From positions 66,088 to 130,087 of the forward strand of contig CAZCUD010000010.1 in the NCBI GenBank assembly GCA_964501785.1: a stretch of DNA of 64,000 bases, written 5' to 3'. Positions 29,527 through 63,517 of the stretch are shown in pieces. The first letter of the stretch is position 1, and each line of letters starts with the position of its first letter. The notes under the pieces are model-generated. The model saw only the letters and a program-made list of their open reading frames with translations. It was not told where the DNA came from and ran no database searches. This DNA comes from an uncultured Bifidobacteriaceae bacterium (GTDB taxonomy: Bacteria > Actinomycetota > Acidimicrobiia > IMCC26256 > PALSA-555). A program made the translations under genes and the position numbers.

Positions 29527-30768
29527 TCAACCCGGGGCCGGCCCGGCGAGGAAGCGCTCGGATGTCGCCGCGATGTGGTCGACGTCGGCGTCGTCCATGC
29601 CGTGGTTGCAGGGGAGGATCAGGCCGGTCTCCATCACGCGGTCGGCGTTGGCGAGGCCACCCGGCGCGACGCGGTGCGGGACCGCCTGGAAGGCCGGCTG
29701 GCGGGTCGCGTTGCCGGTCCAGACCATGCGGGTGTCGATGCCCGAGCGCTCCATGAACTGCTGGTACTCGGTGCGCGACACGCCCGACTCGGGGCGGATC
29801 ATGATCGGGAACATGTGCCAGCCCGTGTCGATCTCGGGGGTCGTGCGGGGGAGCACGAAGACGTCCTCGCGGCCCGAGAAGGCCTCGTGCAGTCGCGCGA
29901 AGTTGCGCTTGCGCCGTTCGAGGAACGCCGGGAGCTTCTGCATCTGCACGACCCCGAACGCAGCGGAGAGCTCCGACGGCTCGAAGTTCCATCCGACCTC
30001 GTCGAAGATGAAGAGGTCGTCGTACTCGAGGCCGTCGATGTCGGAGAAGAACCGCCGCCCGCCGCGCTCACCGCGACGCGATCCGTAGATCGCGACCTCG
30101 CTGCGGCGTCCCCACCGACGGAGGAGGAGGCCACGGTCGACGAGGTCGGGGTCGTCGAGGCACACCATCCCGCCGGTGCCGGCCGCGGTGATGATGTGGG
30201 AGAGGGCGAAGCTCGTGAGGGAGATGTCGCTGCGCGTGCCCGTGGGCGTCCCGCGCAGCGTCGCGCCGAGGCAGTCGCAGGAGTCCTCGACGACCTGGAG
30301 CTCGTGCGCGTCCGCGATGGCGCGGATCCGGTCCCAGTCGGGGCAGTTGCCGATGAGGTTGGGCGCGAGGATCGCTCGCGTGCGGGGCCCGATCGCGGCC
30401 TCGATGGCGTCGACGTCGATCTGGTACGTGTCGACCTCGACGTCGACGAAGACGGGGACGAGTCGCGACCGAACCATCGGCGCGATGTCGGTCGAGAACG
30501 TGACCGCGGACGTGATGATCTCGTCACCGGGATCGAGTGCCAGCAGCTCCACGGCGAGGTAGAGCGCCGACGATCCGGAGTTGACCATGATCCCGCGCTG
30601 CTTGCCGAACGCGGCGGCGACGAGGGCCTCCATCTCGCGGACCCGGGGTCCGATGCGAAGCGCGGTCGGCCCGCCGCGGAGGACTGCGAGGACGGCTTCG
30701 ATCTCGGCGTCGTCGTGGACGCTGCCCGCGTAGTCGATGCGTCGGTCCGTGGCAGGCTCGGGGGGCAT
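29527..30768 (-). CDS. DegT/DnrJ/EryC1 fold enzyme, RfbH/ColD-like (putative PMP-dependent dehydratase)
   Basis: DYAGSVHDDAEIEAV, VNSGSSALYLAV, EDSCDCLGA. The usual PLP-lysine position reads SFALSHIITAAGTGG, with His where aminotransferases have Lys, as in E1/ColD dehydratases. Confidence 0.75.
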   Translation of the reverse strand: MPPEPATDRRIDYAGSVHDDAEIEAVLAVLRGGPTALRIGPRVREMEALVAAAFGKQRGIMVNSGSSALYLAVELLALDPGDEIITSAVTFSTDIAPMVRSRLVPVFVDVEVDTYQIDVDAIEAAIGPRTRAILAPNLIGNCPDWDRIRAIADAHELQVVEDSCDCLGATLRGTPTGTRSDISLTSFALSHIITAAGTGGMVCLDDPDLVDRGLLLRRWGRRSEVAIYGSRRGERGGRRFFSDIDGLEYDDLFIFDEVGWNFEPSELSAAFGVVQMQKLPAFLERRKRNFARLHEAFSGREDVFVLPRTTPEIDTGWHMFPIMIRPESGVSRTEYQQFMERSGIDTRMVWTGNATRQPAFQAVPHRVAPGGLANADRVMETGLILPCNHGMDDADVDHIAATSERFLAGPAPG

Positions 30769-44096: not shown

Positions 44097-44141
44097 CGCC
44101 GGACTCGAGCTCGCGGTGCCCGCGGCTCCCGCGGCTCCCGG

Positions 44142-44180
44142 GGCGCCCTCGGCAGGACTCGAACCTGCGCACACGGCTCC
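44142..44180 (-). repeat. tRNA 3'-end-like fragment, copy A (39 nt)
   Basis: The minus strand reads GGAGCCGUGUGC GCAGG UUCGAGU CCUGC CGAGGGC G CC, that is a T arm plus a 3' acceptor strand. It is identical to 44247-44285. No D arm or 5' acceptor follows. Confidence 0.7.
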
Positions 44181-44246: not shown

Positions 44247-44285
44247 GGCGCCCTCGGCAGGACTCGAACCTGCGCACACGGCTCC
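44247..44285 (-). repeat. tRNA 3'-end-like fragment, copy B (39 nt)
   Basis: Identical to copy A. A 12-nt partial copy (CGCCCTCGGCAG) also sits at 44231-44242. The flank does not fold into a tRNA by hand. Confidence 0.7.
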
Positions 44286-44714
44286 GGAGGCCCTTCCGGA
44301 CTGTCCAAGCAGTCCAACGAGTGTGCCTCCGTTGCCCTGACCTGCAGCTTCGCGTCCGTTGTGTCCAGGGCGCCTATCCCGTCACTCCGAGTTGATTGAC
44401 AACCGGATTGACAGTCCCGTGGCGAGAATACCGAGAGTCGGCCCGCCGTCAACGACCAATCGCGGTGGGGATCGAGGGGGGACGACGAGCGCGTGTGGCG
44501 AGTCCGCTCTCAGCTCTCGGCCTTCCTGAACGCCATGACGAGCGCGAACGCAACGGCCCTAGTCGAGAAGAGCCGCCCAGGTGCTTCCATCGAGTCGCCC
44601 ATTCGGTAGAGGTTCGGGGTACAGGTCGACCCAGACAGGATGTCCATCTGGCTGCTCCACATCGGACACACGACTCGACGCTCACGTCGGCTCATACTTC
44701 TAGACGGGAACCGC

Positions 44715-46815: not shown

Positions 46816-46986
46816 GGCGCCCCCGGCAGGATTCGAACCTGCGACGCACGGTTTAGGAAGACACTCCGAGTCGTCCAGCCAGACCACTCACGTCCAGCGG
46901 GTGTTGTTCTGGCAGGACTCTACGTGCATTGCGTCCAGCCAGTGTCACGGCGTGTGCTGGAGTAGTAGGGCTGGCGGTAGGGACGA
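46816..46986 (-). repeat. 171-nt direct repeat, copy 1: tRNA-Arg(CCU)-like 3' half plus arm-like region
   Basis: The first 52 nt are identical to 59441-59492. The minus strand reads UUCCUAA ACCGU GCGUC GCAGG UUCGAAU CCUGC CGGGGGC G. The tail carries CGTCCAGCCAG x2, one GTAGGG (46965-46970) and one GTAGGGA (46977-46983). Confidence 0.75.
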
Positions 46987-47036: not shown

Positions 47037-47726
47037 TCACGACGCTGTGGCCGGTTCTATCGGTTCGGCCGACGCGACCGGGTAGCCGGCGCGTCGCCAC
47101 TCGGGGTATCCGTCCTCGAGCCGGCGCGCCGTGCGACCGCGCTGTTGGAGCTGTCGCACGGCGTCATCGGCGTACACGCAGTAGGGGCCGCGGCAGTACG
47201 CGACGACTTCGATGTCTTCCGAGAGCGTGGCGAGCTCGTCGGCGAGGCGATCGAGTGGGATCGAGCGAGCGCCGAGCACATGGCCGGCCCGGTACTCGGC
47301 TTCGGGGCGGACGTCGACGACCACGATGTTGCCTTCGTCGAGGCGGCGCGCGAGCTCGTCGCGGGTGATGGCTTCGAGCGCGTCGCGTGCGCCGAGGTAG
47401 TCGACCGCGAGCTTCTCGATCCCGGCGATCTGGGCCGCCGCCACGTCGCGCAAGGCCGTCCAGAGCGCTTCGATGTCCTCCGAGGCGAGTCGGTAGTAGA
47501 TGCGGGTTCCGTCTCGGCGAGTGGTGAGGAGCCCGGCGCGGGCGAGCACTCGTAGGTGGTGGGAGGTGTTGGCGGTGCTCTGTCCGATCTCGGTGGCGAG
47601 GTCGTCGACCGAGCGCTCGCCTTGCGCGAGGACGTCGACGATCTCGGCGCGCCGGCCGTTCGAAAGAGCCCGCGCCACGTCGGCGAAGGCATCGAAGAGC
47701 GCGTCCTTGGCTGCCCGATCGGCCAT
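47037..47726 (-). CDS. ArsR/SmtB-family regulator fused to a C-terminal rhodanese domain
   Basis: wHTH AEIVDVLAQGERSVDDLATEIGQSTANTSHHLRVLARAGLL. Rhodanese part VVVDVRPEAEYRAGHVLGARSIP with active loop AYCRGPYCVYA. Confidence 0.85.
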   Translation of the reverse strand: MADRAAKDALFDAFADVARALSNGRRAEIVDVLAQGERSVDDLATEIGQSTANTSHHLRVLARAGLLTTRRDGTRIYYRLASEDIEALWTALRDVAAAQIAGIEKLAVDYLGARDALEAITRDELARRLDEGNIVVVDVRPEAEYRAGHVLGARSIPLDRLADELATLSEDIEVVAYCRGPYCVYADDAVRQLQQRGRTARRLEDGYPEWRRAGYPVASAEPIEPATAS

Positions 47727-47754
47727 CTGGTGAGTCTGCGGCGATCTGGCGCTA

Positions 47755-47784
47755 TTGTCAAGTAATCAAATGACTACTTGACAA
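47755..47784. promoter_or_regulatory. Perfect 10-10-10 palindrome, candidate ArsR operator spanning two divergent -35 boxes
   Basis: TTGTCAAGTA (47755-47764), a 10-nt spacer, then TACTTGACAA (47775-47784). Each arm contains TTGACA pointing toward one of the divergent genes. It is AT-rich in GC-rich DNA. Confidence 0.55.
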
Positions 47785-47836
47785 GCCCGTCCGGGCCGGC
47801 GTAGGAAGGGTGATGTCGTCTCAGTGAGGGGGAGTC

Positions 47837-48610
47837 ATGACTCGAATCGACGTCGAGGAGCTTCGGGGCAAGGTCCAGGCGATGTACAAGGCAGTCGCCG
47901 AAGACCCGCACGGTGAGTTCCACTTCGAGATGGGACGCGCGCTCGCGGAGCGGCTCGGCTACCCCGCGTCAGCGCTCGACCGTGTCCCGACCGAGGCGAT
48001 CGAGTCGTTCGCCGGCGTGGGCTACCACCTCGACCTCGCGCGGCTCGCGCCCGGCGAGCGAGTCGTCGACTTCGGGAGCGGCTCGGGGATGGACGCCTTC
48101 CTCGCGGCGCGACAGGTCGAGCCCGACGGTGCGGTCGTGGGAGTCGACATGACCGACGAGCAGATCGCGAAGGCGCGTCGGCTCGCGAAGCGAGACGGCT
48201 TCCTGTGGACGACTTTCGAGCGCGGCTACCTCGAGGACGCACCGGTCGAGGACGCATCGGCCGATGTCGTGCTGAGCAATGGCGTCATCAACCTCTGCGA
48301 CGACAAGCAGGCGGTCTTCTCCGAGATCGTTCGCATCCTCCGTCCGGAGGGCAGGATGGCCATCTCCGACATCGTCACGGAGCGTCCGCTCACCGAGGCG
48401 ATCGTGTGCGACGTGAACCTCTGGGCGTCGTGCATCGGCGGTGCGATGCAGGTCGACGACTACACCGCGGCGATCGAGGCGGCGGGCCTGCGAGTCTCGG
48501 AGGTGCGGGAGAACCCGCAGTACCTCTTCCTTTCGGAGTCGGCCCAAGGGGCGACCGAGACGTTCGGTGTGAAGAGCGTCTCGGTGCTCGCGGTCAAGCC
48601 GTCGTCGTGA
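47837..48610 (+). CDS. ArsM-like class I SAM-dependent methyltransferase lacking two of the three As(III)-binding cysteines
   Basis: VVDFGSGSGMDAFLAA SAM motif. ArsM-type blocks read SFAGVGYH (canonical LGCGNP), LSNGVINL (canonical SNCVINL) and ASCIGGA (Cys kept). Confidence 0.75.
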   Translation: MTRIDVEELRGKVQAMYKAVAEDPHGEFHFEMGRALAERLGYPASALDRVPTEAIESFAGVGYHLDLARLAPGERVVDFGSGSGMDAFLAARQVEPDGAVVGVDMTDEQIAKARRLAKRDGFLWTTFERGYLEDAPVEDASADVVLSNGVINLCDDKQAVFSEIVRILRPEGRMAISDIVTERPLTEAIVCDVNLWASCIGGAMQVDDYTAAIEAAGLRVSEVRENPQYLFLSESAQGATETFGVKSVSVLAVKPSS

Positions 48611-49983
48611 GCGCGCCTGGATCGACCGCGACGGATCGCGTGCACGAGTTGCGCGACGACGCGTTGGCGAACACGTCCTTTCTCGTCGACGTCGGAGGCG
48701 GTGAAGCCGTCGTCGTCGATCCGCCGCGCGACGTCGACCGTCACCTCCGCTTGGCGGACGAGCTGGGGGTGCAGATCGTCGCGACGTTCGAGACGCACGT
48801 GCACGCGGACTACGTGAGTGGAGCCACCGAGCTCGCCGCGCTCGGCGCCCAGGCGGTCGTGCCGGAGGGCGCGCGGCCAGCGTGGGCGCATCGGTCGATC
48901 AGTGACGACGAGGTGTACGAGGCCGGGCGGGCACGTCTGCGCGCGATGGCGACGCCTGGGCACACGCCCGAGCACATGGCGTACGTGCTCGAGGTCGACG
49001 GTGTCGCGGTCGGGGTCTTCGCGGGCGGCTCGCTGATCCAGGGTGGTGCCGCGCGCACCGATCTCCTCGGCCCGGAGCACACCGAGGAGCTGGCCCGGGC
49101 CCAGCACGCGAGTCTGCGGCGCCTGGCGCGCCTTCCGGACGCGACTGCCCTGTATGCCACCCACGGTGCAGGATCGTTCTGCCATGCGAGCTCGGTGACA
49201 GTCGAGCACCCGACGATCGGTTCCGAACGCGCGACGAACGCGCTTCTGTCGATCGAGGACGAGGACGGGTTCGTCGCCGCGCTCACCGCCGGGTTCGGGT
49301 CCTATCCCCGCTACTACGCGCACCTCCCGGCGCTCAACGAGGCAGGACCCACGCCGATCGCCAGCCTCCCGGAACCTGGCCGTCTCGCCGCTCGAGAGGT
49401 CGCACGCCGGCTCGACGCGGGCGATGCCTGGCTCATCGACGCACGCGACATCGCTGACTGGGCGCGCGGGCATCCCCGGGGCGCGATCTCGAACGCGCTT
49501 CGACCTGCTTTCGCGTCGTGGCTCGGATGGGTCGTGCCCTTCGGCGCTCCGGTGATCGCGCTCGTCGATCCCGACGGCGAGGAGGAGCTCGTTCGCTTGG
49601 CCCGCCGCATCGGCTACGACGACGTTGCGTTCCTCGACGGCGGCATCGACGCGTGGCGCGCGGCGGACCTCCCCATGGACGCCGTCGCCGAAGTCGACGC
49701 CGAACGAGCGCGTCAGCTGCACCACGACGGGGCGACACTGCTCGACGTCCGCCAGACCTCCGAGCTCGACGTGCTTCGGATCCCGGACGCGATCCACGTG
49801 GAGCTCGGCGACATCATCAGTGGCGCCTTCCCCGACGGTCAGAGTCCGCACATCGTCTTCTGTGGCCACGGCGAGCGCTCGGCGACTGCGGCGAGCCTGC
49901 TGGAACGTCGCGGGCTCGAGGTCGTCAACCTCGTCGGCGGCACCAGCGCATGGGTCGAGGCGGGGCTTCCGGTCGAGCCCTGA
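48607..49983 (+). CDS. MBL-fold hydrolase (persulfide dioxygenase-like) fused to two rhodanese domains
   Basis: The GTG start overlaps the upstream stop (GTGA). THVHADYVSG metal motif, TPGHTPEH. The second rhodanese has active loop VFCGHGERS. CstB/Blh-like architecture. Confidence 0.8.
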   Translation: MSAPGSTATDRVHELRDDALANTSFLVDVGGGEAVVVDPPRDVDRHLRLADELGVQIVATFETHVHADYVSGATELAALGAQAVVPEGARPAWAHRSISDDEVYEAGRARLRAMATPGHTPEHMAYVLEVDGVAVGVFAGGSLIQGGAARTDLLGPEHTEELARAQHASLRRLARLPDATALYATHGAGSFCHASSVTVEHPTIGSERATNALLSIEDEDGFVAALTAGFGSYPRYYAHLPALNEAGPTPIASLPEPGRLAAREVARRLDAGDAWLIDARDIADWARGHPRGAISNALRPAFASWLGWVVPFGAPVIALVDPDGEEELVRLARRIGYDDVAFLDGGIDAWRAADLPMDAVAEVDAERARQLHHDGATLLDVRQTSELDVLRIPDAIHVELGDIISGAFPDGQSPHIVFCGHGERSATAASLLERRGLEVVNLVGGTSAWVEAGLPVEP

Positions 49984-51756: not shown

Positions 51757-52518
51757 GTGGTCATGGAGGCGAACACCGCCCACGCCGACGGCGAGGCCGT
51801 CGAGGTGCTGACCGTCGACGAGCTGGCAGCCCGGGTCGGCCTCCCGGTGCGCACGATCCGCGAGTACCAGACGATGGGCCTGCTCCCGCCGCCCGCACGG
51901 CGAGGACGGGTCGGCATCTACGGGCCCGGTCACGTCGCTCGCCTCGAGCTGATCGGTCGACTCCAAGCGCGCGGCTACTCCCTCGCGGGCATCCGCGATC
52001 TCCTCCACGCGTGGCGCGAGGGCGCCGACCTCAGCGAGGTTCTCGGCCTGCGCGCCGACGAGCTTGTGCACGTCGAGGAACCCGGGGCACCTGTGACGGC
52101 CGGCCAGCTCGCCCGCGCGCTCCCGGGGCTCATCCCTGAGCACCGCGACGAGCTCCTCGCCACGGGCGTCGTCGAAGTGGGGAGCGGCGACACCTACTGC
52201 GTGCCGAGCCCGTCACTGCTCCAGCTCGGCGCCGACGCGCTGCACCTCGGCTACGCCCCCGAAGCCGTGCTGGGCCTCTTGCGTGCGCTGCGCCGAGCTG
52301 CCGACACCGTCGCCGATGCCGCGCTCGAAGCGATCGGCGAATTCCCTCCGCAGGCCGATGCCGGCGAGCTCCTCGCCTTCGCTACGCGTGCACGAGGGTT
52401 GCTCGCGCACGGCACCGGCCGACTCGCGATCCACACCCTCGGTGCCCGGCTCGGCATCACCGACGAAGAGCAGGTCACCGACGGACTCCGTCGGCTCCTG
52501 GAAGGAAGCCACCCATGA
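51757..52518 (+). CDS. MerR family transcriptional regulator
   Basis: N-terminal HTH LTVDELAARVGLPVRTIREYQTMGLLPPP and the RLELIGRLQARGYSLAGIRDLL dimerisation helix. Confidence 0.8.
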   Translation: MVMEANTAHADGEAVEVLTVDELAARVGLPVRTIREYQTMGLLPPPARRGRVGIYGPGHVARLELIGRLQARGYSLAGIRDLLHAWREGADLSEVLGLRADELVHVEEPGAPVTAGQLARALPGLIPEHRDELLATGVVEVGSGDTYCVPSPSLLQLGADALHLGYAPEAVLGLLRALRRAADTVADAALEAIGEFPPQADAGELLAFATRARGLLAHGTGRLAIHTLGARLGITDEEQVTDGLRRLLEGSHP

Positions 52519-53414: not shown

Positions 53415-53521
53415 GCCGAGCCCGGTGCCTTGAGTCGGCGCCCCCACGTTGGCGCATCGGCCCCACTTGCCGGTCCAGCCCCTCGAGCACTCGGCGAGCC
53501 ATGTCCTAGAGTGCGCTTACT

Positions 53522-53536
53522 ACTACGATACGTAGT
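53522..53536. promoter_or_regulatory. Perfect palindrome ACTACG-ATA-CGTAGT upstream of the NlpC/P60 gene
   Basis: It lies 22 nt upstream of ATG 53558. It shares the ACTACG half-site with the 58368, 62845 and 62947 motifs, but the arms are 6 bp closer. Confidence 0.4.
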
Positions 53537-53557
53537 CGTCCCCCCTGAGGAGCACCG

Positions 53558-54601
53558 ATGGCGCTTCGTGGCCTCACACGTCCTCTTGTCGCTGGCGCGC
53601 TCGTGCTCGGCGCGGCCGTGAGCGGCGCATCGTCATCCATCGGCGGCGTCGCAGTGGCCGCGCCGATCGACGACCTCCGAGCACAGGCCCAAGCGCTCGA
53701 AGCGAAGATCGCGTCGAACGGAACGGAGATCGCGGCACTCGGGGAGCAGCTCAACGCCGCGCAGCTCCAGCTCGACGAAGCGCAATCGAAGGTCGACGAC
53801 GCCGAGGTGAGGATCGAGCAGACGAGACGAGAAGTCGTCCGTCTGGAGGACCTCGTCGATCGCCGCGCCGTCTCGATCTATCAGTCGGCCGGACTCGCCA
53901 ACCCCCTCGTGATCTTCGAGGTCGAGAACGCGACGGAAGCAAGCACGCGGCTCAAGTACGGCGAGATCGCGACTCGTCGCGACAACCAGCTGCTGCGCGA
54001 CCTCGCCGCGGCACGCAAGGACCTCGACGTGCAGCGAGCCGAAGCGACGACCGAGCAGCGTCATGCGGCCGCTGAGCGCGACCGACTCACCCAAGCGAAG
54101 GCAGACGCCGACGCTGCAGCCGCGGAGCAGCGAGCGCTCCTCGATCAGGTCGAGGGACGCCTCGGCGAGCTCGTTCGCGAGGAACAGCAACGGCGTGCCG
54201 CGACCACGACGCCGGCCGCCGGCAAGAGCACCTGGTCGGGTCCAGTGCCGAACCCGAGCGGTGGCGCAGCTGCAGCGGTCGCGTTCGCACAAGCGCAGCT
54301 CGGCAAGCCGTACGAGTACGCCGCCTCCGGTCCCGACACGTATGACTGCTCGGGGCTCACGATGCGCGCCTGGCAGGCCGGTGGTCTGTCCTTGCCGCAC
54401 TACTCGGGTGCCCAGGCCGCGATGTTCCCGAGAGTCCCGCTCGACCAGCTTGCACCCGGCGATCTGATCACGACGAGCAGCTGGCCGGCTCACATCGGGA
54501 TCTGGGTCGGCGGGGGCTTCATCCACGCCACGCACACGGGCGATGTCATCCGCTACGTGAGCGGCAGCGCCTCCGTCGTCGACGCCGTGCGGCCGGGGTG
54601 A
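53558..54601 (+). CDS. Secreted coiled-coil NlpC/P60 peptidoglycan endopeptidase (RipA-like)
   Basis: Signal peptide, a long coiled coil (LRAQAQALEAKIA...), and a C-terminal catalytic block YEYAASGPDTYDCSGLTMRAW ... HIGIWVGGGFIHA. Confidence 0.85.
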   Translation: MALRGLTRPLVAGALVLGAAVSGASSSIGGVAVAAPIDDLRAQAQALEAKIASNGTEIAALGEQLNAAQLQLDEAQSKVDDAEVRIEQTRREVVRLEDLVDRRAVSIYQSAGLANPLVIFEVENATEASTRLKYGEIATRRDNQLLRDLAAARKDLDVQRAEATTEQRHAAAERDRLTQAKADADAAAAEQRALLDQVEGRLGELVREEQQRRAATTTPAAGKSTWSGPVPNPSGGAAAAVAFAQAQLGKPYEYAASGPDTYDCSGLTMRAWQAGGLSLPHYSGAQAAMFPRVPLDQLAPGDLITTSSWPAHIGIWVGGGFIHATHTGDVIRYVSGSASVVDAVRPG

Positions 54602-54693: not shown

Positions 54694-55260
54694 TCACGTG
54701 ACGTCACGAATGGCACCCAGTACGAGCGATACGAGGCGGTCAGCGGCTCGCTGCGTCCTGACGTGCGCTGCGCCATCGAGAGCGTGGACGCAGAAGTTCG
54801 CGAGCTCCTTCGGAGACACGTCGGTACGGATGCCGGCTGTCGTGGCGGAGTCGGCGATCATCGCGGCGACGAATCCGAGCAACCTGCGTCGTGCGTGGGC
54901 GACGTGGGCACCGCTGTGGAGCTCTGCAGCCAGCTCCGTTCCGTGGTGGGCACGGCGGATGCGCGCGTAGGCGGTCAGCACCGCCTCGACCTGCAACGTG
55001 GGATCGGTGGTGTCGCGGATCTCCTCGAGCATCGCCAAGTGGTGTGAGATCTGACGCTCGTGCCATGCGATGAGGATCTCGTATGCCGTCTTCTGCTTGA
55101 AAAAAAAAGTAGCCCGGCCGATGCCGGTCTCGTCGGCGATGCGGGACATCGTCGCGGCGCCCCGGCCGTATTCGGCAACGAGCGCAGCGGTTGCGACGAG
55201 AGTGGCGTCTCGGACGGCGCGTCGGTGCTCGTCGATCGTCTCCGTCCAGAGCCGCGGCAT
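54694..55260 (-). CDS. TetR family regulator whose HTH region is corrupted by adapter sequence
   Basis: ATG at 55260. ATMSRIADETGIGRAT then the artefactual FFFKQKTAYEI, then LIAWHERQ. The rest is TetR-like. The ORF remains open. Confidence 0.7.
   Translation of the reverse strand: MPRLWTETIDEHRRAVRDATLVATAALVAEYGRGAATMSRIADETGIGRATFFFKQKTAYEILIAWHERQISHHLAMLEEIRDTTDPTLQVEAVLTAYARIRRAHHGTELAAELHSGAHVAHARRRLLGFVAAMIADSATTAGIRTDVSPKELANFCVHALDGAAHVRTQRAADRLVSLVLGAIRDVT
55076..55108 (+). other. Illumina P7 adapter 24-mer plus A9 (assembly artefact)
   Basis: ATCTCGTATGCCGTCTTCTGCTTG (55076-55099) is the reverse complement of CAAGCAGAAGACGGCATACGAGAT. It is followed by nine A (55100-55108). Confidence 0.9.
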
Positions 55261-55300
55261 GCCGTCAGCGTACGGATCGTCGTGATACGAGACAAGCGTC

Positions 55301-55329
55301 TTGACATAGACAGACTGTCTCGTAAAAAT
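55301..55329 (+). promoter_or_regulatory. Sigma-70-like promoter with a palindromic operator in the spacer
   Basis: TTGACA (55301-55306), palindrome AGACAG-A-CTGTCT (55308-55320), and an AT-rich -10 TAAAAAT (55323-55329). It lies between the divergent TetR gene and the small membrane-protein genes. Confidence 0.55.
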
Positions 55330-55363
55330 GCCGGCACGCCGTTCGGGTTCGAGAGGACATGCG

Positions 55364-55513
55364 ATGGCACGAGAAGCGCAGGCCGCCACGCCACCGAGAG
55401 GTGCGATGCCCCGCTGGGTGAAGGTGCTCGGAGTCGTCGCGCTCGTCGTGATCGTCATCGTCGTCGTGATGCTGCTCGTCGGCGGCGATCACGGGCCCGG
55501 ACGGCACACGTGA
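55364..55513 (+). CDS. Small membrane protein (one TM helix, C-terminal GDHGPGRH)
   Basis: In-frame ATG at 55364 after GAGAGGA. VKVLGVVALVVIVIVVVMLLVGG. Its stop overlaps the next gene's possible GTG. Confidence 0.45.
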   Translation: MAREAQAATPPRGAMPRWVKVLGVVALVVIVIVVVMLLVGGDHGPGRHT

Positions 55514-56076: not shown

Positions 56077-56910
56077 TCAGCTTCTCGTCCAGCGTCTGGG
56101 GTCTGCGTCGTACTTCTCGACGCAGATCTGTGAGCAGAAGTAGAGCGTGCGGCCCGCGTCGTCTCGCGTTGCAGAGGCCCGGTCCTTGATGATCTCCATC
56201 CCACAGACCGGGTCGATCGCCGTGGCGAACGCGGAGGGGCGATCGCGCAGCTCGCCATCGGCAAGCCAGAGGAGACGGTCCGCCGCATCGGTGATGCGGT
56301 GATCGTGCGTGACGACGATCGCAGTCTTCGCGGTCTGTTCGACGATGTTCTGCAGGAGGTGCAGGACCTGGTAGCCGGATGCGGCGTCCAGGTTCGCGGT
56401 CGGCTCGTCCGCCAGGATCAGCTCCGGATCGTTCATGAGCGCGCGGGCGATGGCGACCCGCTGCTTCTCTCCTCCGGAGAGCTGGTCGGGTCGGTGATGC
56501 GCCCGCGAGCTGAGCGCGAACTGCTCGAGGAGCTCGTGTGCGCGGCGCCGCCGATCGTGGCGGTCGATGCCGGCAAGTGTCGCGGGGGCGGCAACGTTGT
56601 CGAGCGCGTCGAGCGCCCCGAGGAGGTTGAAGCTCTGGAAGATGAAGCCGATGTGGTGGAGCCGGAGCTGGGCGAGCTGCGTGCGAGTGTGGTTCGCGAG
56701 GTTGCGGCCGGAGACGCTGATCGTCCCGCTGGTCGGCGTGAGCAATGCCCCGATGAGCTGGAGGAGGGTGGTCTTCCCGGATCCCGAGGGACCCATGATG
56801 ATTACCAGCTCGCCGCGAGCGACCTCGAGGTTGACCGCATCGACCGCGGTGACGGTCGACCCGCCAGCGTGAAACTCCTTGGTCACGTCGACGAGACCGA
56901 GGACGCTCAC
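56077..56910 (-). CDS. ABC transporter ATP-binding protein (MacB/LolD-like) with a C-terminal YHS/TRASH-type metal-binding domain
   Basis: The GTG at 56910 overlaps the permease stop (GTGA). Walker [10 protein letters not shown], signature LSGGEKQR, Walker B LILADEP. Tail [12 protein letters not shown]...[11 protein letters not shown]. Confidence 0.85.
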
Positions 56911-58013
56911 GCTGCGAACACCTCGCCGGGATCGATGCGAGTGATCCGCAACAGTGGCAAGAGCGCGGCGACGAGCGCCATCACCGCGGTGAGCGCAGCG
57001 ACGAGCGCGAGGTCTGCGATCCGGATCTCGGTGATGAACTGCGGAACCCACCGCTGCGAGACGGCGCGCCATGCGAGCGCGAGCACGAGCCCGACGATGA
57101 ATCCGGCTGCCGCGGCGAGCAGCGCCTGGGTGGCGATCACCACGACGAGCTGCCGCGCTCTTGCTCCGAGCGCCTTCAGCATGCCGTACTCACGCCGTCG
57201 TTCGACGACGCTCGAGTAGATGACCAGGCCCACGACCGCGACGCCGACCACGAACGCGAGGACGAGGAGCACTCGCACGACCGGCAGGAACCCGGCGTTG
57301 ATCGGTCGCTGGTTGACCTCGATGAGCTCGCCGGGATCCCGCACCTGCACGCGCGCATCGGCGCCGAGGGCCGCGCGGACCCCACGAGGATCGGCCCCGG
57401 GCTCGAGACGAACGAGCGCTGCGTTGTCGAAGTCCTTCAGGCCGAGCACCGCACGCGCGGTCGCCTCGGTCGCGAAGGCGTACTGGAACATCACCAGGTC
57501 TCCGCCACGCGCGATCCCTTCCACGCTGAGATCCTGCATCCCGACCGTCATGTGGTCGCCGATGGAGAGGTCGTGCTCGCGGGCGAAGACCTCGTCGATG
57601 ATCAGGCCGCGCGGGCCGACCTCGGCGGTTCCTTCGACGACTTCGCTCGGTCCGACGACCGGATCCTCCGGATCGAATCCGACCAGGTACACGACCGCGT
57701 CGGTGTCGTCGACCTGGGCCACGACCAGACGAGCGACGTAGGGCCGAACCGAGGCGACTCCGGGTGCTCGCTCCAGTTCCGAGCGCACCTCGAAGGGCAG
57801 GAGCGAGAAGGAGTGGAAGAAGTCAGCGGTGCCCGACTCGAGCACCCAGAGATCCGCCCGAATCGACCCGAAGAAGTCCGAGACGCGGGTCTGATATGCG
57901 ACGAACAGACCACGGATGAGGATGATCATCGCGACCGCGAACGCCACTCCACCCACGGAGATCGCGAGGCGGACCCGCTCTCGAAGGAGGTTGCGCAACG
58001 CGAGACTGACCAC
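56907..58013 (-). CDS. ABC transporter permease, FtsX/MacB-like
   Basis: N-terminal TM, a large extracytoplasmic loop, and a C-terminal 3-TM FtsX-like block (LKALGARARQLVVVIATQALL...). Confidence 0.8.
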   Translation of the reverse strand: MVSLALRNLLRERVRLAISVGGVAFAVAMIILIRGLFVAYQTRVSDFFGSIRADLWVLESGTADFFHSFSLLPFEVRSELERAPGVASVRPYVARLVVAQVDDTDAVVYLVGFDPEDPVVGPSEVVEGTAEVGPRGLIIDEVFAREHDLSIGDHMTVGMQDLSVEGIARGGDLVMFQYAFATEATARAVLGLKDFDNAALVRLEPGADPRGVRAALGADARVQVRDPGELIEVNQRPINAGFLPVVRVLLVLAFVVGVAVVGLVIYSSVVERRREYGMLKALGARARQLVVVIATQALLAAAAGFIVGLVLALAWRAVSQRWVPQFITEIRIADLALVAALTAVMALVAALLPLLRITRIDPGEVFAA

Positions 58014-58109
58014 GCGACTCCCCTGTCCCGACGTCTCGGCAGTCTACGACGTCTTGTAGTGCAACCGGCGCTGCTCATGCACGAACGTCTGTGCAAGGAG
58101 GCGCCCCCG

Positions 58110-58367: not shown

Positions 58368-58389
58368 ACTACGACAGGTTTGTCGTGGT
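58368..58389. promoter_or_regulatory. Palindromic motif ACTACGACA-GGTT-TGTCGTGGT
   Basis: Upstream of the DUF305 gene. Same half-site as 62845-62865 and 62947-62967. Confidence 0.5.
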
Positions 58390-58560
58390 CCAGGGTCGAA
58401 GTTCCGTCTCCGGGCAACCATGTGACCCACGTAGCCACGCCTTCCGGCTAGGCGTTTCCGTCGTTGCCACCCGGGTATTCGTCTTCGATACGAGGCGACG
58501 CTCTTGGATCCCGCGCTTAGCACGTCGCCCGTGTTGCGAAGCAGAAGGAAGGTCACCCAA

Positions 58561-59073
58561 GTGAACGGCTCATACCTGAGATTCGGGGCCATGGTCACCA
58601 CGTCGACCGTCGTGATGTTCGGGCTGACGTACACCAACGTCTTCGCGATCGATCACGTGTGGTGGAGCGAGGAGCGCTTCTACATGGCTCTCGTCATGGG
58701 CGGAGCCATGGCGATCGTCATGATCGCCTTCATGTGGCACATGTACGCCAATGTCTGGATCAATGCCGTAGTCATCGCATTGGGTCTCGTTTTCCTCGGG
58801 GCCGGGCTCGGGCTATCGCGTTCACAGGTCTTTGTCGGTGACGCCGACTACATGAAGGGGATGATCCCGCATCACTCGATTGCGATCCTGACGAGTGAGC
58901 GCGCGGACATCGACGACGTGCGGGTACGCACGCTGGCTGATGAGATCATTCGCGCGCAACGACGCGAGATCGCCGAGATGGAGTGGTTGGTCGACGACAT
59001 CGCGCGCAACGGCGAGGCCACAACTCGTGAGGCCGCCGAGCGACGCCCCGTCCCCGACGATCTCGGGCCTTAG
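58561..59073 (+). CDS. DUF305 family membrane protein (metal/copper-stress associated family)
   Basis: GTG at 58561 lies 8 nt after GAAGGAAGG. Three TM helices, then MIPHHSIAILTSE...ADEIIRAQRREIAEMEW (DUF305 HH motif). Confidence 0.75.
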   Translation: MNGSYLRFGAMVTTSTVVMFGLTYTNVFAIDHVWWSEERFYMALVMGGAMAIVMIAFMWHMYANVWINAVVIALGLVFLGAGLGLSRSQVFVGDADYMKGMIPHHSIAILTSERADIDDVRVRTLADEIIRAQRREIAEMEWLVDDIARNGEATTREAAERRPVPDDLGP

Positions 59074-59440
59074 ATCGCGATGCGGCTCACTCGCACTGGC
59101 TCCGATGCCAACTACAAGAGCTCGAGCCCGGGTGGCGAGCCACGTGCCTTGACGCCCGCCGCAGAAGGCGTGCGTCGGAGCACCGACGCCGCAGTTGAGC
59201 GTCTACGTGACGGGCACGGCGGATGTGTCGTAAGCGCCGGTCGCCAGCGGGTGCGAGCGGCGCCGTCGCGATCAAGGCCGACGTGGGTTGCCGTGACCGA
59301 CGTGACGCGTCGGGGTGGACTTCGGGCGTCGGTTTCGCGCGTCCCTACCGCCGTCCCTACTACTGGACGACACCAGATGGACGAGCGACACGCCAGCGCG
59401 TCGTGTGACGACCGTCTTACCTGCGCAAACGTGCTGACTC

Positions 59441-59611
59441 GGCGCCCCCGGCAGGATTCGAACCTGCGACGCACGGTTTAGGAAGACACTCCCGACCGTC
59501 CAGCCAGACTACTCACGTCCAGCGGGTGTTGTGCTGTAAGGACTCTACGTCCATCGCGTCCAGCCAGTGACACGGCGTGCGCTGGAGAAGTAGGGATGGC
59601 AGTAGGGACGA
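59441..59611 (-). repeat. 171-nt direct repeat, copy 2
   Basis: 52 nt are identical and there are 15 mismatches in the remaining 119 nt versus 46816-46986 (hand alignment). GTAGGGA occurs at 59590, 59602 and 59615. Confidence 0.75.
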
Positions 59612-59879
59612 TCGGTAGGGACGCGACCGGACTTGGGCGCCATGAATGGCGTCCGATTCGACATGCGACGAAGAACACTGCGGCGGCAACCTCCTGCGCA
59701 GCCGTAGCCGCCGTAGTTGCCTGTCTTGCCAGGATCATCGCCGACTCAGAACATCCTCCTTGGGAGTCGAGGCGACGGAACGTCTCGAGGTCGAAGTCCC
59801 TGAGATGTTCACGGCAACATTTCGGCGTCGACAACCCCCAGTGGCGACGCGCGCCGACGGGCGATCGCTCGCGATGTCG

Positions 59880-60650
59880 CTACCTCGCGATCGCCCCTCG
59901 GGGCCGTTGCAGGGAGCGACTGAGGATGCTGACGACTGCGACGCTCACGATTGCCGCCCAGGCGAGGGCGCCGAGCAGCTCGATGACAGGAACAGGGTTG
60001 TGGTGCGCGAAGGAGGCCGCGATCACCACGCGCATGCCCGGGTAGCCCGGAAGCGTGACCGCCCAATCAGGCGGGCGGCCGCTTCCGAACATCGGGTTCT
60101 GGACGACGCCCAGGTCGATCATCGCGAGGAACAGGACCAAGTATGTGGCGCCTACCCGCCCGAGGAGCGAACCGGCGAGCGCTCCTATACCGGCATAGGT
60201 GATTCCGATCAGTGCGGTTGCGATGGCGAATCCGACGAAGCTTCGCGGAGTGAAGTCGCGTGCTGTCACGAGCAGCGACAGGGCAGTGATGACGCCGGTC
60301 GCCGTCAGAAGGACGACAAGGCGCGAAGTCACGGCTTCGAGACCACGGTATCCAGCGAGCACGAGGCGACGGTCGGCTTGCTTCGCCGATTGCATGATGA
60401 AGACCCCGACGAGCCCGCTGAGGAACGCAACGGTGATCGCCGCCATGGTCGCGCCATGGACCTCCCGCATCGTGCTCAGTGCGATGCCTCCCCCGGGCAG
60501 ACCGACAGCGCGCGGGATAGGTCGAGTGGCGGCGATGGCACGCGTGATGAAGAAGATGGGGGTGACGACCAGCAGGATCACGAGCAGTGGCCGACGTCGA
60601 AGGTCACGCAGCCACAGTCGGGTCGCCGCCCAGGTGCGGTCGAGTCTCAC
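59880..60650 (-). CDS. ABC-2 type transporter permease-like membrane protein
   Basis: The GTG at 60650 overlaps the upstream stop (GTGA). Six hydrophobic helices. Last gene of the ATPase-permease-permease operon. Confidence 0.6.
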   Translation of the reverse strand: MRLDRTWAATRLWLRDLRRRPLLVILLVVTPIFFITRAIAATRPIPRAVGLPGGGIALSTMREVHGATMAAITVAFLSGLVGVFIMQSAKQADRRLVLAGYRGLEAVTSRLVVLLTATGVITALSLLVTARDFTPRSFVGFAIATALIGITYAGIGALAGSLLGRVGATYLVLFLAMIDLGVVQNPMFGSGRPPDWAVTLPGYPGMRVVIAASFAHHNPVPVIELLGALAWAAIVSVAVVSILSRSLQRPRGAIAR

Positions 60651-61366
60651 CTTCGGGTCCTCGCCGCGTACCAGAACGCGCCCAAAGCGACGCCGAGTGC
60701 GACGACGACGCTGATCGCCGCGCCCGTCCACGTTCGATCTGCGGAAGCCATCCCGCCGCCGGCCGCAAGGAGAAGCTCACCGGCCTTCTGACTCGGTGAC
60801 AAGAGCGTCGCGACGCCAGTCGTCCCCTTCGACATGCCGGGTCCGGAGAACACGTCGAGGAGAAGGATGAACACCACTAGGAGTGACCCGGCGAGCGCGT
60901 CGCGGACCACGGAACCGACAGCGGTGCCAATGGCCAGGTAGATGCAGGCATAGGCGAGCATGGCCAGCACCGTGTGGGCGACATGCGGTACCGGCTGCTG
61001 GAGGCGTAGCGCGAGGAACGCGGCTGCTGTCACTGTTCCAGCCAGCCCCAATGCACTCATGAGGCGCGCGACCGCAATGCGGCCCGGTCCGAGACCAGCG
61101 AGCGCGAGCCGCTGGTCAGCCTCGTGCGACGACATCGTGACGAAGTACCCGAGGGCACCGGCCAGGAATGCGACTGACCATCCTGCGGCGAGGGCTGTCG
61201 CTGGGCCGCCGGTTGCGGAACCTCCTAGCGCGCGCGAGAAGTCGCTGAGCACCGAGGATGCCGTAACGACGAACAGCAGCGGCAGTACGACGAGAAGGGT
61301 GAGTAGCAAGGGTGAACGCATCTGTTCGCGCAGGAAGTACCAGCCGGTCGTCACGACACCTCTCAT
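60647..61366 (-). CDS. ABC-2 type transporter permease-like membrane protein
   Basis: The ATG at 61366 overlaps the ATPase stop (ATGA); the alternative ATG is at 61378. Multiple TM helices. Confidence 0.6.
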   Translation of the reverse strand: MRGVVTTGWYFLREQMRSPLLLTLLVVLPLLFVVTASSVLSDFSRALGGSATGGPATALAAGWSVAFLAGALGYFVTMSSHEADQRLALAGLGPGRIAVARLMSALGLAGTVTAAAFLALRLQQPVPHVAHTVLAMLAYACIYLAIGTAVGSVVRDALAGSLLVVFILLLDVFSGPGMSKGTTGVATLLSPSQKAGELLLAAGGGMASADRTWTGAAISVVVALGVALGAFWYAARTRR

Positions 61367-62037
61367 GAAGGAACGCATCGGCCATCAACCAGCGAGTAGC
61401 TGCGCGTCAGACGTTCCCGCTCGCCGATCAGGTGCGACACGATCAGGATGGCCATGCCGGCCGCGCGGCGATGTTCGGCCATTCCCCAGAAGCTGAGGTA
61501 CGTCTCCCAATCGAACCCGGTATAGGGCTCGTCGAGGAGCAGGAGATCCGGCTCGTGCAGGAGCGCCAAGGCGAGGTTGAGCTTCTGACGCGTCCCTCCC
61601 GAGAGTGCCTCGACGCGAAAGTCGAGATAGCGCGCGAAGGCGAGCTCGTCGAGCAGTCGAGCGGTGCTGGCGGCCGCGCGGTCCGGATCCATCCCATACG
61701 CGCGTGCGAAGAGGCCGATGTGCTCCGCGACGGTCAACTTCTCCCAGAGCTGTGGCATCTGCGGGCAATAGCCGAGCGTGCCGCGCAGCTCGACGGTCCC
61801 ACTCGTGGGAGCAAGCATTCCGACGATGATCTGCATCAAGGTGCTCTTCCCCGACCCGTTCTCACCGACGAGTCCGACAAGCTCCCCGCGTGCCAGCTCC
61901 AGACTCGCGCCCTTCAAGACCGATGCGACAGCACCGAACGGCCAGGTGCCGATGTGAAACGACTTCGTCACCTCGGTCACAGACAGCACGAAATCTCGGT
62001 CAATCGACGCTGCTTCAACCACGCCGAGCCCCGGCAC
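61363..62037 (-). CDS. ABC transporter ATP-binding protein
   Basis: Walker A GENGSGKST, signature LSGGTRQK, Walker B LLLLDEP. Confidence 0.85.
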   Translation of the reverse strand: MPGLGVVEAASIDRDFVLSVTEVTKSFHIGTWPFGAVASVLKGASLELARGELVGLVGENGSGKSTLMQIIVGMLAPTSGTVELRGTLGYCPQMPQLWEKLTVAEHIGLFARAYGMDPDRAAASTARLLDELAFARYLDFRVEALSGGTRQKLNLALALLHEPDLLLLDEPYTGFDWETYLSFWGMAEHRRAAGMAILIVSHLIGERERLTRSYSLVDGRCVPS

Positions 62038-62419
62038 AGCCCGACTCGCCGACCACGATCGTCCACTCGGTCACATCGACTCGCGATCATCGACCGTGAG
62101 TGGGTCAGCAGAGACGTCGTCACGTCCTCGACCACCGTTCATGAGCATCATGCTCAGGCAGCGCGCCATCATTCCGACGAAGAACGGTGCGTGCGTCAGT
62201 CGGGATGCGATCAGAAGCAGCGCCGCGATGATGGCGATGGATGCACCGACGTGGAATCTGAGCATGTTGCGTGCGTTCACTGCACCGCCCTCTCACGTGT
62301 CGGAGTCAGTGATTCGGCGCCGATGGCGCGGAGCGGAGGCGAGAACTTCGACACCGAATTCCTTGCCGCGAAGTCGCGACGGTGGAGAGGACTCGGGACG
62401 GCCCTTGCGACGTGTGGGC

Positions 62420-62797
62420 CTAACCGCCGTCGTGGCCGCCCGGCCCTTGGTGGCCACCGCCGGACTGGTGCATCCCGGGCATCTCGCTCATCGACGCACC
62501 ATGCTCGTCCATGAGCTTCTGCAACTTGCCGCTCTCCATGAGCTGCCACATCGCGTCGGAATCCATTTGCTGTCGCATCTCCGGAGTCATCGACTCCCGA
62601 AGCTGGGTCATCATCGAGGTGAAGTCGTTCATCATCTCGGGCATGGAACCGTCGGCCATCATCACCGCCATGCGGTCACTGCCCAGGCCGTGCTGATCGT
62701 CAGCCCCGTGGCCGTCATCACCAACGGCATATCCCACGCCGAAGACGGCGGCGGCCACCACGACCGCACCGAGGATCAGCATCCAGCGACGTTTCAT
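62420..62797 (-). CDS. Secreted Met/His-rich protein (candidate Cu(I)-binding)
   Basis: ATG at 62797 after GAAGGAG. Signal MKRRWMLILGAVVVAAAVFG. The mature part is full of M-x2-3-M motifs and ends HQSGGGHQGPGGHDGG. Confidence 0.6.
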   Translation of the reverse strand: MKRRWMLILGAVVVAAAVFGVGYAVGDDGHGADDQHGLGSDRMAVMMADGSMPEMMNDFTSMMTQLRESMTPEMRQQMDSDAMWQLMESGKLQKLMDEHGASMSEMPGMHQSGGGHQGPGGHDGG

Positions 62798-62844
62798 CGA
62801 GAACTCCTTCAATCGGGCCCGCTACGGGGCGCCCGAAGAACATA

Positions 62845-62865
62845 ACTACGACATGCTGTCGTTGG
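62845..62865. promoter_or_regulatory. Palindromic motif ACTACGACA-TGC-TGTCGTTGG
   Basis: 48 nt upstream of the Met/His-rich gene start, in the divergent intergenic region. Confidence 0.5.
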
Positions 62866-62946
62866 CAGGGGCGAAGGTCCTTGCCCGTGCGAATGCGTGT
62901 AGCGGCGAGCCCAGCCTCTGGCAGGGCGGAAGTTGGGCCTATAGGC

Positions 62947-62967
62947 ACTACGACAGCAAGTCGTAGT
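62947..62967. promoter_or_regulatory. Palindromic motif ACTACGACA-GCA-AGTCGTAGT
   Basis: 17 nt upstream of the USP ATG. 8-bp perfect arms ACTACGAC/GTCGTAGT. Confidence 0.5.
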
Positions 62968-62983
62968 TACGGCATGATGCTGA

Positions 62984-63517
62984 ATGAGTGGTTCTCACGC
63001 CTGGAGCGAACCTATGGACGCACCGCGCAAGAGCCAAGAGATCGTCGTGGGGGTCGACGGCTCCGCAAACGGCCGGGCGGCGCTGCGTTGGTCGGTCTCC
63101 CATGCGCAAGGCGGCGACACGATTCACCTGATCCATGCCTGGTCGGTGTCGCCAGCTGTCGTCGAGGCCGGCCTCGCGAGCGCCGATGATGACTCTAAAG
63201 CGCTCGCGTTCCTTCGTCATGAGGCCGCCCGAGCGCACGAGCTTGGTCTGGCACCCGATGTGCAGATCACGACGAAGGCGGTCCTGGGAGACCCACGAGT
63301 CGCACTCATTGACGCCGCTCGTGGAGCAGACCTCCTCGTGATCGGCGCACGCGGGCGCAGCGGGATTGCTGGCCTGCTCATGGGGTCCGCGAGCACGTAC
63401 TTGACTCGTCATGCTCCCTGCCCGACTGTCGTCGTCCCGTGGCCAGGTGTCGACCATCCGGACGCTGACGAATCGGGCCAGGTGGACTTCGATCGGACCG
63501 AGGTGCCCGACCTGTGA
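62984..63517 (+). CDS. Universal stress protein (UspA family)
   Basis: IVVGVDGSANGRAALRW ... LLVIGARGRSGIAGLLMGSASTYLTRHAPCPTVVVP. Confidence 0.85.
   Translation: MSGSHAWSEPMDAPRKSQEIVVGVDGSANGRAALRWSVSHAQGGDTIHLIHAWSVSPAVVEAGLASADDDSKALAFLRHEAARAHELGLAPDVQITTKAVLGDPRVALIDAARGADLLVIGARGRSGIAGLLMGSASTYLTRHAPCPTVVVPWPGVDHPDADESGQVDFDRTEVPDL

Follow-up and report, generated by a model that had tools for sequence, protein, structure and literature searches.

Which regulator could recognise a palindrome that recurs upstream of several genes with a metal-stress flavour, on a stretch of DNA in which no regulator gene accompanies them? The question is raised by 64,000 nucleotides of an uncultured member of the Acidimicrobiia (assembly GCA_964501785.1, contig CAZCUD010000010.1, positions 66,088 to 130,087), referred to below as the window, with a G+C content of 70%. 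An earlier inspection of the letters alone (the sequence-only reading) had noted three such palindromes, before genes for a DUF305 protein, a methionine/histidine-rich (Met/His-rich) protein and a universal stress protein (USP), and had taken them for a shared transcription-factor operator with no cognate regulator in view. This interpretation proved essentially right, judged by a link of the box to blaI genes in other genomes and by its conservation in related promoters. However, the class of the regulator can be identified and is a known one, which makes the finding less novel than had been implied. With a probability of roughly 0.85, the palindromes are predicted to be operators of a repressor of the BlaI/MecI/CopY family (PF03965), of the type of the actinobacterial BlaI (Rv1846c), acting in trans.

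All three palindromes were found by a direct check of the sequence at the positions given for them, and all three are intergenic, as had been claimed. Site 1 (ACTACGACAggttTGTCGTGGT, 58368-58389) has a 4-nt spacer and is situated in the divergent intergenic region between an FtsX gene on the minus strand and the DUF305 gene on the plus strand, where it precedes the first DUF305 start (TTG 58504) by 114 nt. Sites 2 and 3 both have a 3-nt spacer and are predicted operators of the BlaI type. Site 2 (ACTACGACAtgcTGTCGTTGG, 62845-62865; gene-strand reading CCAACGACAgcaTGTCGTAGT) precedes the ATG of the Met/His-rich gene (62797) by 47 nt, and site 3 (ACTACGACAgcaAGTCGTAGT, 62947-62967) precedes the USP ATG at 63014 by 46 nt and the ATG at 62984 by 16 nt. 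With up to three mismatches to ACTACGACA-N3/4-TGTCGTAGT these are the sole matches in the 64 kb, and dinucleotide shuffles gave 0.00 expected matches with a 3-nt spacer and 0.01 with a 4-nt spacer. Site 3 deviates by one mismatch from the perfect palindrome, and each of the three contains the inverted repeat CGACA...(T/A)GTCG with a half-site core of the form (T/G)ACA / TGT(A/C). The palindromes are actually present and are non-random.

The evidence for the identity of the regulator comes from other genomes. When the perfect palindrome was searched for in GTDB species genomes, one for each species, 22 loci were obtained, several of them from metagenome-assembled genomes (MAGs) of Acidimicrobiia or other Actinomycetota, and a scan of metagenome contigs gave at least 120 loci. 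At six of the 22 (L005, L007, L009, L015, L017 and L020, all Acidimicrobiia MAGs) the palindrome is located at a blaI-like gene or its operon. In L007, from the Iamiaceae, the box is followed after 133 nt by blaI, then by a blaR-like gene, a DUF305 gene, further genes, a cupredoxin gene and lgt, and a csoR and a YHS-containing cyclase gene are present upstream of this array. The box-linked BlaI-like protein could be assigned to PF03965 (Penicillinase_R, E = 6.7e-23) and its neighbour is an M48/M56-type peptidase with an HExxH motif. A PF03965 repressor paired with an M56/M48 protease was found in L005, L007, L009, L017, L020, L071, L073, L098, L108, L121-L125, L129 and L154, and plasmid homologues of the two proteins are named 'BlaI/MecI/CopY family transcriptional regulator' and 'M56 family metallopeptidase' in RefSeq.

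When the matches listed from both scans were pooled and blaI and blaR were counted on the stretch fetched for each locus (median 5.5 kb of DNA), blaI and/or blaR were present at 20 of 39 high-GC loci with a 3-nt spacer versus 0 of 103 others (Fisher p = 6e-14). The 20 loci reduce to about 14 distinct genomic contexts. Among the matches listed, the box lies within 350 nt of a blaI/blaR pair in 14 loci, and two positions recur, one upstream of blaI and the other directly behind blaR, before the next gene. The former, with the box 25-170 nt upstream of blaI, was seen in L005, L007, L009, L015, L034, L103 and L154; a box at the promoter of the repressor gene itself was found in relatives, not in the window.

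Further, imperfect boxes at the BlaI-linked loci have a 3-nt spacer in 37 cases, against one with 2 nt and three with 4 nt. These boxes include a palindromic variant, ACTACTACA-N3-TGTAGTAGT, and the consensus was for this reason written as ACTAC(G/T)ACA-N3-TGT(C/A)GTAGT. In the metagenome matches listed, high-GC sites number 32 with a 3-nt and 3 with a 4-nt spacer, and 4-nt spacers make up 78 of all 121 sites, 75 of the 78 in low-GC contigs, many of these labelled human gut. Loci with a 4-nt spacer only were also considered as BlaI boxes and rejected; among the matches listed 81 of 87 are of low GC content and none is BlaI-linked or near copper genes.

A matrix built from only the 38 secondary (imperfect) boxes of other loci ranked site 3 first in the window (29.1 bits) and site 2 second (26.7 bits). 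The third and fourth best scores belong to two weaker candidate boxes: ACTACTACGataCGTAGTCGT at 53519-53539 (21.2 bits), 18 nt upstream of the ATG (53558) of an NlpC/P60 gene, and TCTACGACGtctTGTAGTGCA at 58043-58063 (18.8 bits), 29 nt upstream of the GTG start (58013) of the FtsX gene. The second of these accounts for the degenerate half-site at 58044 in the sequence-only reading, which was rightly related to the motif but is not a mere half-site, since it belongs to a weak full box. The next independent score was 10.9. Positions with a 3-nt spacer reaching at least 18 bits number 4 in the window versus 0.045 expected from simulated sequences; all four are intergenic and upstream of genes, and no box was found within coding DNA of the window. 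The window would thus hold five predicted BlaI boxes before copper/envelope-stress genes.

Promoters of related genes carry the same element. For the Met/His-rich protein only 33 homologues were found, of which one carries the name of an Acidimicrobiia MAG and another is a fusion with a YHS domain. Orthologues with 74-78% identity are encoded in L152 (an Acidimicrobiia MAG), L154 and L156, and in all three a Met/His box CAACGACA-N3-TGTCGTAGG is conserved 56-64 nt upstream of the ATG. These boxes read (T/A)C(A/G)ACGACA-N3-TGTCGTAGG; in place of CTAC the distal half-site has CAAC in L152, L154 and the window and CGAC in L156, a departure at one shared position, and the box is the most conserved block in the alignment of the four Met/His promoters. 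The orthologue in L152/L153 (78% identity) heads the same operon, with an ATP-binding cassette (ABC) ATPase and two permeases, while the one in L156/L157 is followed by an FtsX-FtsX-ABC(YHS) arrangement. In L154, the nearest relative for which gene context was available, it belongs to an island with copper P-type ATPases, an NlpC/P60 gene and, 8 kb away, a blaI-M56 pair with a box in front of blaI. The NlpC/P60 genes of L152 and L154 have upstream boxes as well, and an orthologue of the membrane DUF305 protein of the window (L094, 60% identity) has a box with a 3-nt spacer 24 nt before its ATG.

Besides blaI itself, the genes that start directly behind perfect boxes in other loci encode multicopper oxidases (L015, L049, L071, L078, L122 and L125, the gene in L015 being read from lists of open reading frames (ORFs)), TlpA-like thioredoxins divergent from CcdA/DsbD (L013, L081, L083, L098, L099, L108, L111, L113 and L126), Lgt (L045, L088, L109 and L144), CopC/CopD and DUF305 proteins (both L141), FTR1 (L078), a LysM protein (L062), a DUF3105 protein (L073) and small membrane proteins (L007 and L020). 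The genes behind boxes in relatives are a copper/envelope set. On a plasmid of Rhodococcus erythropolis a blaI-M56 pair has the same neighbourhood, with genes for CsoR, CopC, DUF305, BlaI, M56, Lgt and multicopper oxidase proteins; no clear box was found on this plasmid. Genes for CsoR are present in the same islands in L001, L007 and L028. In L001, a Streptosporangiaceae MAG, a perfect box (426-446) is situated between the csoR stop and a copZ-like HMA gene, 8 nt before the latter, and no blaI was found on the 5.5-kb contig. This suggests that the same box is used in copper operons outside the Acidimicrobiia.

The following mode of action is proposed. As a tblastn search of the 64-kb window returned no homologue of BlaI or BlaR, which agrees with the absence of a cognate regulator remarked on earlier, the repressor must be supplied in trans by another part of the genome. 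A dimeric winged-helix BlaI would bind the 21-bp box ACTAC(G/T)ACA-N3-TGT(C/A)GTAGT, 15-65 nt before start codons, and would repress the Met/His-rich/ABC-2 operon through site 2 and the USP gene through site 3. Its hold on the NlpC/P60 gene and on the FtsX/ABC-YHS operon would be weaker, and the DUF305 gene may be a further target through site 1. Normally, the repressor would be encoded together with a BlaR-like membrane M56/M48 metalloprotease that has no penicillin-binding sensor domain. Upon an envelope signal this protease may cleave BlaI and so derepress the regulon; the content of the regulon in relatives suggests copper stress, or envelope stress induced by copper, as the signal. Here, binding and repression are inferred, as are the nature of the signal and the relay by proteolysis, which is established for the staphylococcal system.

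Among known systems, the box-linked regulator found its best PDB match in Mycobacterium tuberculosis BlaI (2G9W, E = 4e-13), whereas staphylococcal and bacillar MecI and BlaI matched only weakly (MecI E = 5e-5). BlaI (Rv1846c), which is encoded with BlaR (Rv1845c), is of the same PF03965 family as the box-linked regulators, and the recognition helix LAYTTVMT(I/V)L is common to mycobacterial BlaI and most of the Acidimicrobiia proteins examined, although overall the sequences are no more than about 35-45% identical. The sequence GATACGACAgcgAGTAGTAAG was found roughly 45 nt before M. tuberculosis blaI, and AGTACGACTggaTGTAGTACG roughly 25 nt before blaI in Mycobacteroides immunogenum. Both promoters have the same operator core and 3-nt spacing (TACGACA-N3-aGTAGTA in M. 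tuberculosis), and the outer ACTA/TAGT positions are better conserved in the boxes described here. A motif TAC(G/T)AC...GT(A/C)GTA is said to have been described for M. tuberculosis BlaI by Sala et al. in 2009. In the M. tuberculosis locus, blaI is followed by a sensor-domain-less M56/M48 protease, the same kind of partner as here (PMC13492132). The targets are different: the mycobacterial BlaI regulon reportedly involves blaC, ATP synthase and cell-division genes (PMC12565901; PMC13492132), while the boxes of the window and of the Acidimicrobiia precede genes for multicopper oxidase, CopCD, DUF305, Met/His-rich protein and YHS-ABC transporters. In the window, moreover, the regulator is not encoded beside its presumed targets.

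In Staphylococcus aureus, a BlaI or MecI dimer sits on dyads of the TACA/TGTA type and is relieved by a membrane M56 protease, and the repressor gene is autoregulated. Compared with BlaR1 and MecR1, the BlaR-like partners found here are only about 285-320 aa long and have no penicillin-binding sensor domain, and the targets are not beta-lactamases. The CsoR and RicR copper regulons of actinobacteria share the theme of one repressor over several dispersed copper-stress genes but depend on an unrelated protein fold. Their operator is GC-rich and pseudo-palindromic, and the boxes found here do not resemble it. Other dyads were seen upstream of BlaI paralogue genes on plasmids, with three copies of CTACAnnnTGTAG on a Streptomyces plasmid (L029, 7800-7900) and two copies of CTTAC-N5-GTAAG on a Mycobacteroides abscessus plasmid (L027, 5880-5920). 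The recognition helices of these plasmid paralogues are also different, which indicates that the operator differs between subfamilies.

Could the regulator instead be a CopY-like member of the same family, sensing copper directly by a C-terminal Cys motif and with no protease partner? This is improbable, even though protein family and kind of operator would be the same and the target genes look copper-related. The operator of the CopY/BlaI/MecI family is TACA/TGTA, the cop box TACAnnTGTA was refined to RNYKACANNYGTMRNY for CopY, and two operators per promoter region are common (PMC7253601). The sequence-only reading had seen no match to CopY operators; this holds for the strict cop box TACAnnTGTA, but not for the refined form, as the half-site CGACA fits its YKACA (PMC7253601). 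Like the boxes of Firmicutes CopY/CopR, those found here are inverted repeats with a half-site ending in KACA, situated before copper-resistance genes and predicted to be addressed by the same repressor family. They differ from the strict cop box by a longer half-site (ACTACGACA) and by a spacer of 3 nt (sites 2 and 3) or 4 nt (site 1) in place of 2 nt, and given the 3-nt rule at box-linked blaI genes they are not a Firmicute cop box. A C-terminal CxC motif is absent from all box-linked regulators that were examined (L005, L007, L009, L017 and L154), and wherever the contig extends far enough their gene is followed by one for an M56/M48-type protease, both features being unlike CopY. Furthermore, CopY-type sensors have been described only from Firmicutes (PMC11672702).

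It is more improbable still that the palindromes are bound by a regulator encoded in the window, namely a TetR (54694-55458), a MerR (51757-52518) or an ArsR-rhodanese protein (47037-47726). TetR and MerR proteins do bind palindromes, and the three genes are located 3-11 kb from site 1 in the same segment, which is bounded by a 171-nt direct repeat (46816-46986 and 59441-59611). Both the repeat and the spread of the motif across its boundary, as earlier described, are real, and it is precisely sites 2 and 3 that lie beyond the repeat-bounded segment. No box adjoins any of the three regulator genes, and elsewhere the box co-occurs with blaI and not with TetR, MerR or ArsR genes.

A slighter chance again is given to the possibility that the three copies are leftovers of one duplicated promoter module and were not selected as a regulon. 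Sites 1 and 2 share a flank of 47 nt (79% identity, E = 1e-5), and a companion element accompanies all three sites: CAGGGTCGAAGTT adjoins site 1 (58391-58403, plus strand), and further copies of the element, CAGGGNCGAAGKT, are located at 62866-62878 and 62922-62934 (plus strand). Three copies are present in the window against 0.5 expected, each 1-12 nt from a strong BlaI box, and the gene-strand form GGACCTTCGnCCCT is conserved beside the box in the orthologous Met/His promoters. Site 3, on the other hand, shares no extended flank with either of the other two, and the box is kept in orthologous promoters of diverged genomes and recurs upstream of unrelated genes in many genomes. In other loci no association of the companion element with the box was found. 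The element may be a promoter element or a site for a second factor. It was also considered as an extracytoplasmic function (ECF)-type promoter, and this was rejected as the usual spacings do not fit.

The least probable explanation, that the palindromes are RNA hairpins (terminators, attenuators or processing sites), could draw on the folding of site 1 (-13.7 kcal/mol, z = -3.2) and site 3 (-11.3 kcal/mol, z = -4.2) and on a simple terminator scan in which site 2 looked terminator-like on the minus strand, but the folding of site 2 does not surpass that of shuffles (-5.8 kcal/mol, z = -0.7), no Rfam match reached the gathering threshold in the whole window, the sites are located upstream of genes in divergent promoters, the box is tightly linked to blaI, related boxes keep their half-site sequence with a variable spacer and with uncompensated mismatches, which fit a protein site and not an RNA stem, and the 4-nt-spacer matches in low-GC gut contigs are unrelated hairpins.

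Several points weigh against the assignment of the palindromes to a BlaI-type repressor. There is no PF03965 gene in the 64-kb window, and the presence of the repressor in this organism is deduced from its relatives. The match to the M. tuberculosis operator rests on our own reading of the M. tuberculosis blaI promoter. A scan with the sigma-70 consensus placed no sigma-70-like promoter, and overlap of operator and promoter is for that reason assumed. No USP gene stands behind a box in any other locus, which leaves site 3 with no orthologous support. No box was found within 10 kb of the genes for DUF305 homologues in Micrococcales (about 72% identity; Salinibacterium, Arthrobacter and Marisediminicola); this would make the regulon lineage-specific, and the comparison is no refutation. 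Finally, the 4-nt spacer of site 1 is a spacing not seen at BlaI-linked boxes.

Site 1 therefore has to be judged apart from the other two. Its position and its palindrome are as first described, but a 4-nt spacing is essentially absent among regulator-linked boxes elsewhere. If one spacer base were deleted, the site would score 27-29 bits with the matrix; a weak or decayed site or an assembly indel may account for this spacer. Its earlier assignment to the DUF305 gene is correct in so far as it lies upstream of the DUF305 start, but it is uncertain, as the spacer is atypical and the 47-nt flanking module, a copy of the Met/His promoter module, is oriented to the left, toward the FtsX/ABC-YHS operon. 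No remnant of a Met/His gene was found between site 1 and FtsX.

The identities proposed for the neighbouring genes (DUF305, USP, ABC ATPase with YHS domain and FtsX) could be confirmed with Pfam. The gene for the Met/His-rich secreted protein (62420-62797, minus strand) is the first of the operon behind site 2 and has an AGGAG ribosome-binding site (RBS); its start at ATG 62797 was confirmed by an exactly matching 125-aa product (P0265). It is probably co-transcribed with genes on the same strand for a small transmembrane protein, an ABC ATPase and two ABC-2 permeases (Pfam; 59880-62280, the ATPase and permeases at 59880-62037). The USP gene (62984-63517, plus strand; PF00582, E = 5.6e-26) is likely to start at 63014, behind a GGAG RBS. 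To the right of site 1 lies the gene for the membrane DUF305 protein (58504-59073, plus strand; P0001, called from TTG 58504). The FtsX permease gene (56907-58013, minus strand), with its GTG start at 58013, lies on the left-hand side of both site 1 and the 58043 box, and on the same strand a gene for an ABC ATPase with a C-terminal YHS domain (56077-57072) was recognised with Pfam. The NlpC/P60 peptidoglycan hydrolase (PF00877) is encoded behind the 53519 box (53558-54601, plus strand), and the TetR gene, also assigned with Pfam, is on the minus strand.

The two copies of the 171-nt direct repeat are 91% identical and bracket 12.6 kb with genes for the ArsR-rhodanese protein, a methyltransferase, a metallo-beta-lactamase (MBL)-rhodanese protein, a major facilitator superfamily (MFS) protein, the MerR, NlpC/P60 and TetR proteins, the ABC-YHS transporter and the DUF305 protein. 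They resemble the termini of an element that has integrated. Behind the Met/His-ABC operon of L152, the orthologue of the one in the window, lies a phage-type integrase gene. A tRNA-Arg(CCG) gene is located at 44247-44324 (minus strand), and at 44125-44180 its 3' part recurs as a partial copy of 56 nt, a typical integration-site scar. Third-codon G+C is 0.91-0.98 in the housekeeping genes of the window (sucA-like, argS, lysA, hom, thrC and sodA; 1-42000) and about 0.80-0.89 in genes beyond 44 kb, which suggests that the entire right-hand 20 kb is acquired DNA and not just the repeat-bounded segment.

Within this region (47037-49983) the gene for the ArsR-rhodanese fusion regulator is divergent from those for the methyltransferase and an MBL-fold/double-rhodanese protein, an arrangement that resembles a BigR/CstR-like sulfide/persulfide detoxification cluster. 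An exact match of 24 nt to the Illumina P7 adapter (CAAGCAGAAGACGGCATACGAGAT, minus strand), with an A9 run behind it, is part of the TetR ORF (54694-55458) at 55076-55109 and is read in frame as 'FFFKQKTAYEI'. This is an assembly artefact and possibly marks a misjoin within the repeat-bounded segment. A 91-nt 'tRNA-???' with undetermined anticodon that ARAGORN reported at 30030-30120 (minus strand), inside or beside a predicted coding sequence, is likely to be spurious.

Over 90% of the BlaR proteins annotated so far have no beta-lactam sensor domain and respond to unknown signals, and the sensor-less BlaR of mycobacteria is not clearly tied to beta-lactams (PMC13492132). As a tentative proposal, to which we give somewhat under an even chance, copper stress outside the cytoplasm would be answered in Acidimicrobiia, and on Rhodococcus plasmids for copper resistance, by a regulon whose master switch is a BlaI/BlaR pair coupled through its protease and devoid of a penicillin-binding sensor domain. 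The regulon would comprise multicopper oxidase, CopCD, DUF305 and Met/His-rich proteins, YHS-ABC transporters, Lgt and TlpA/CcdA, and copper, or envelope proteins damaged by it, would take the place of beta-lactams as the signal sensed by the M56 protease. A literature search found no paper that links BlaI/M56 pairs to the control of copper genes; for actinobacteria, CsoR/RicR are at present credited with the sensing of copper, and control of the CopY type is regarded as a feature of Firmicutes only.

With a predicted repressor class, the orphan motif becomes a testable regulon. Its boxes on both sides of the island boundary indicate that acquired genes appear to be wired to a trans-acting regulator of the host or of the island. 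The copper content of the regulon in uncultured Acidimicrobiia, together with the neighbourhood on the R. erythropolis plasmid, suggests a concrete signal that is testable in a cultivable host. If true, the copper proposal would tell what the numerous BlaR proteins of the 'sensor-less' class naturally respond to.

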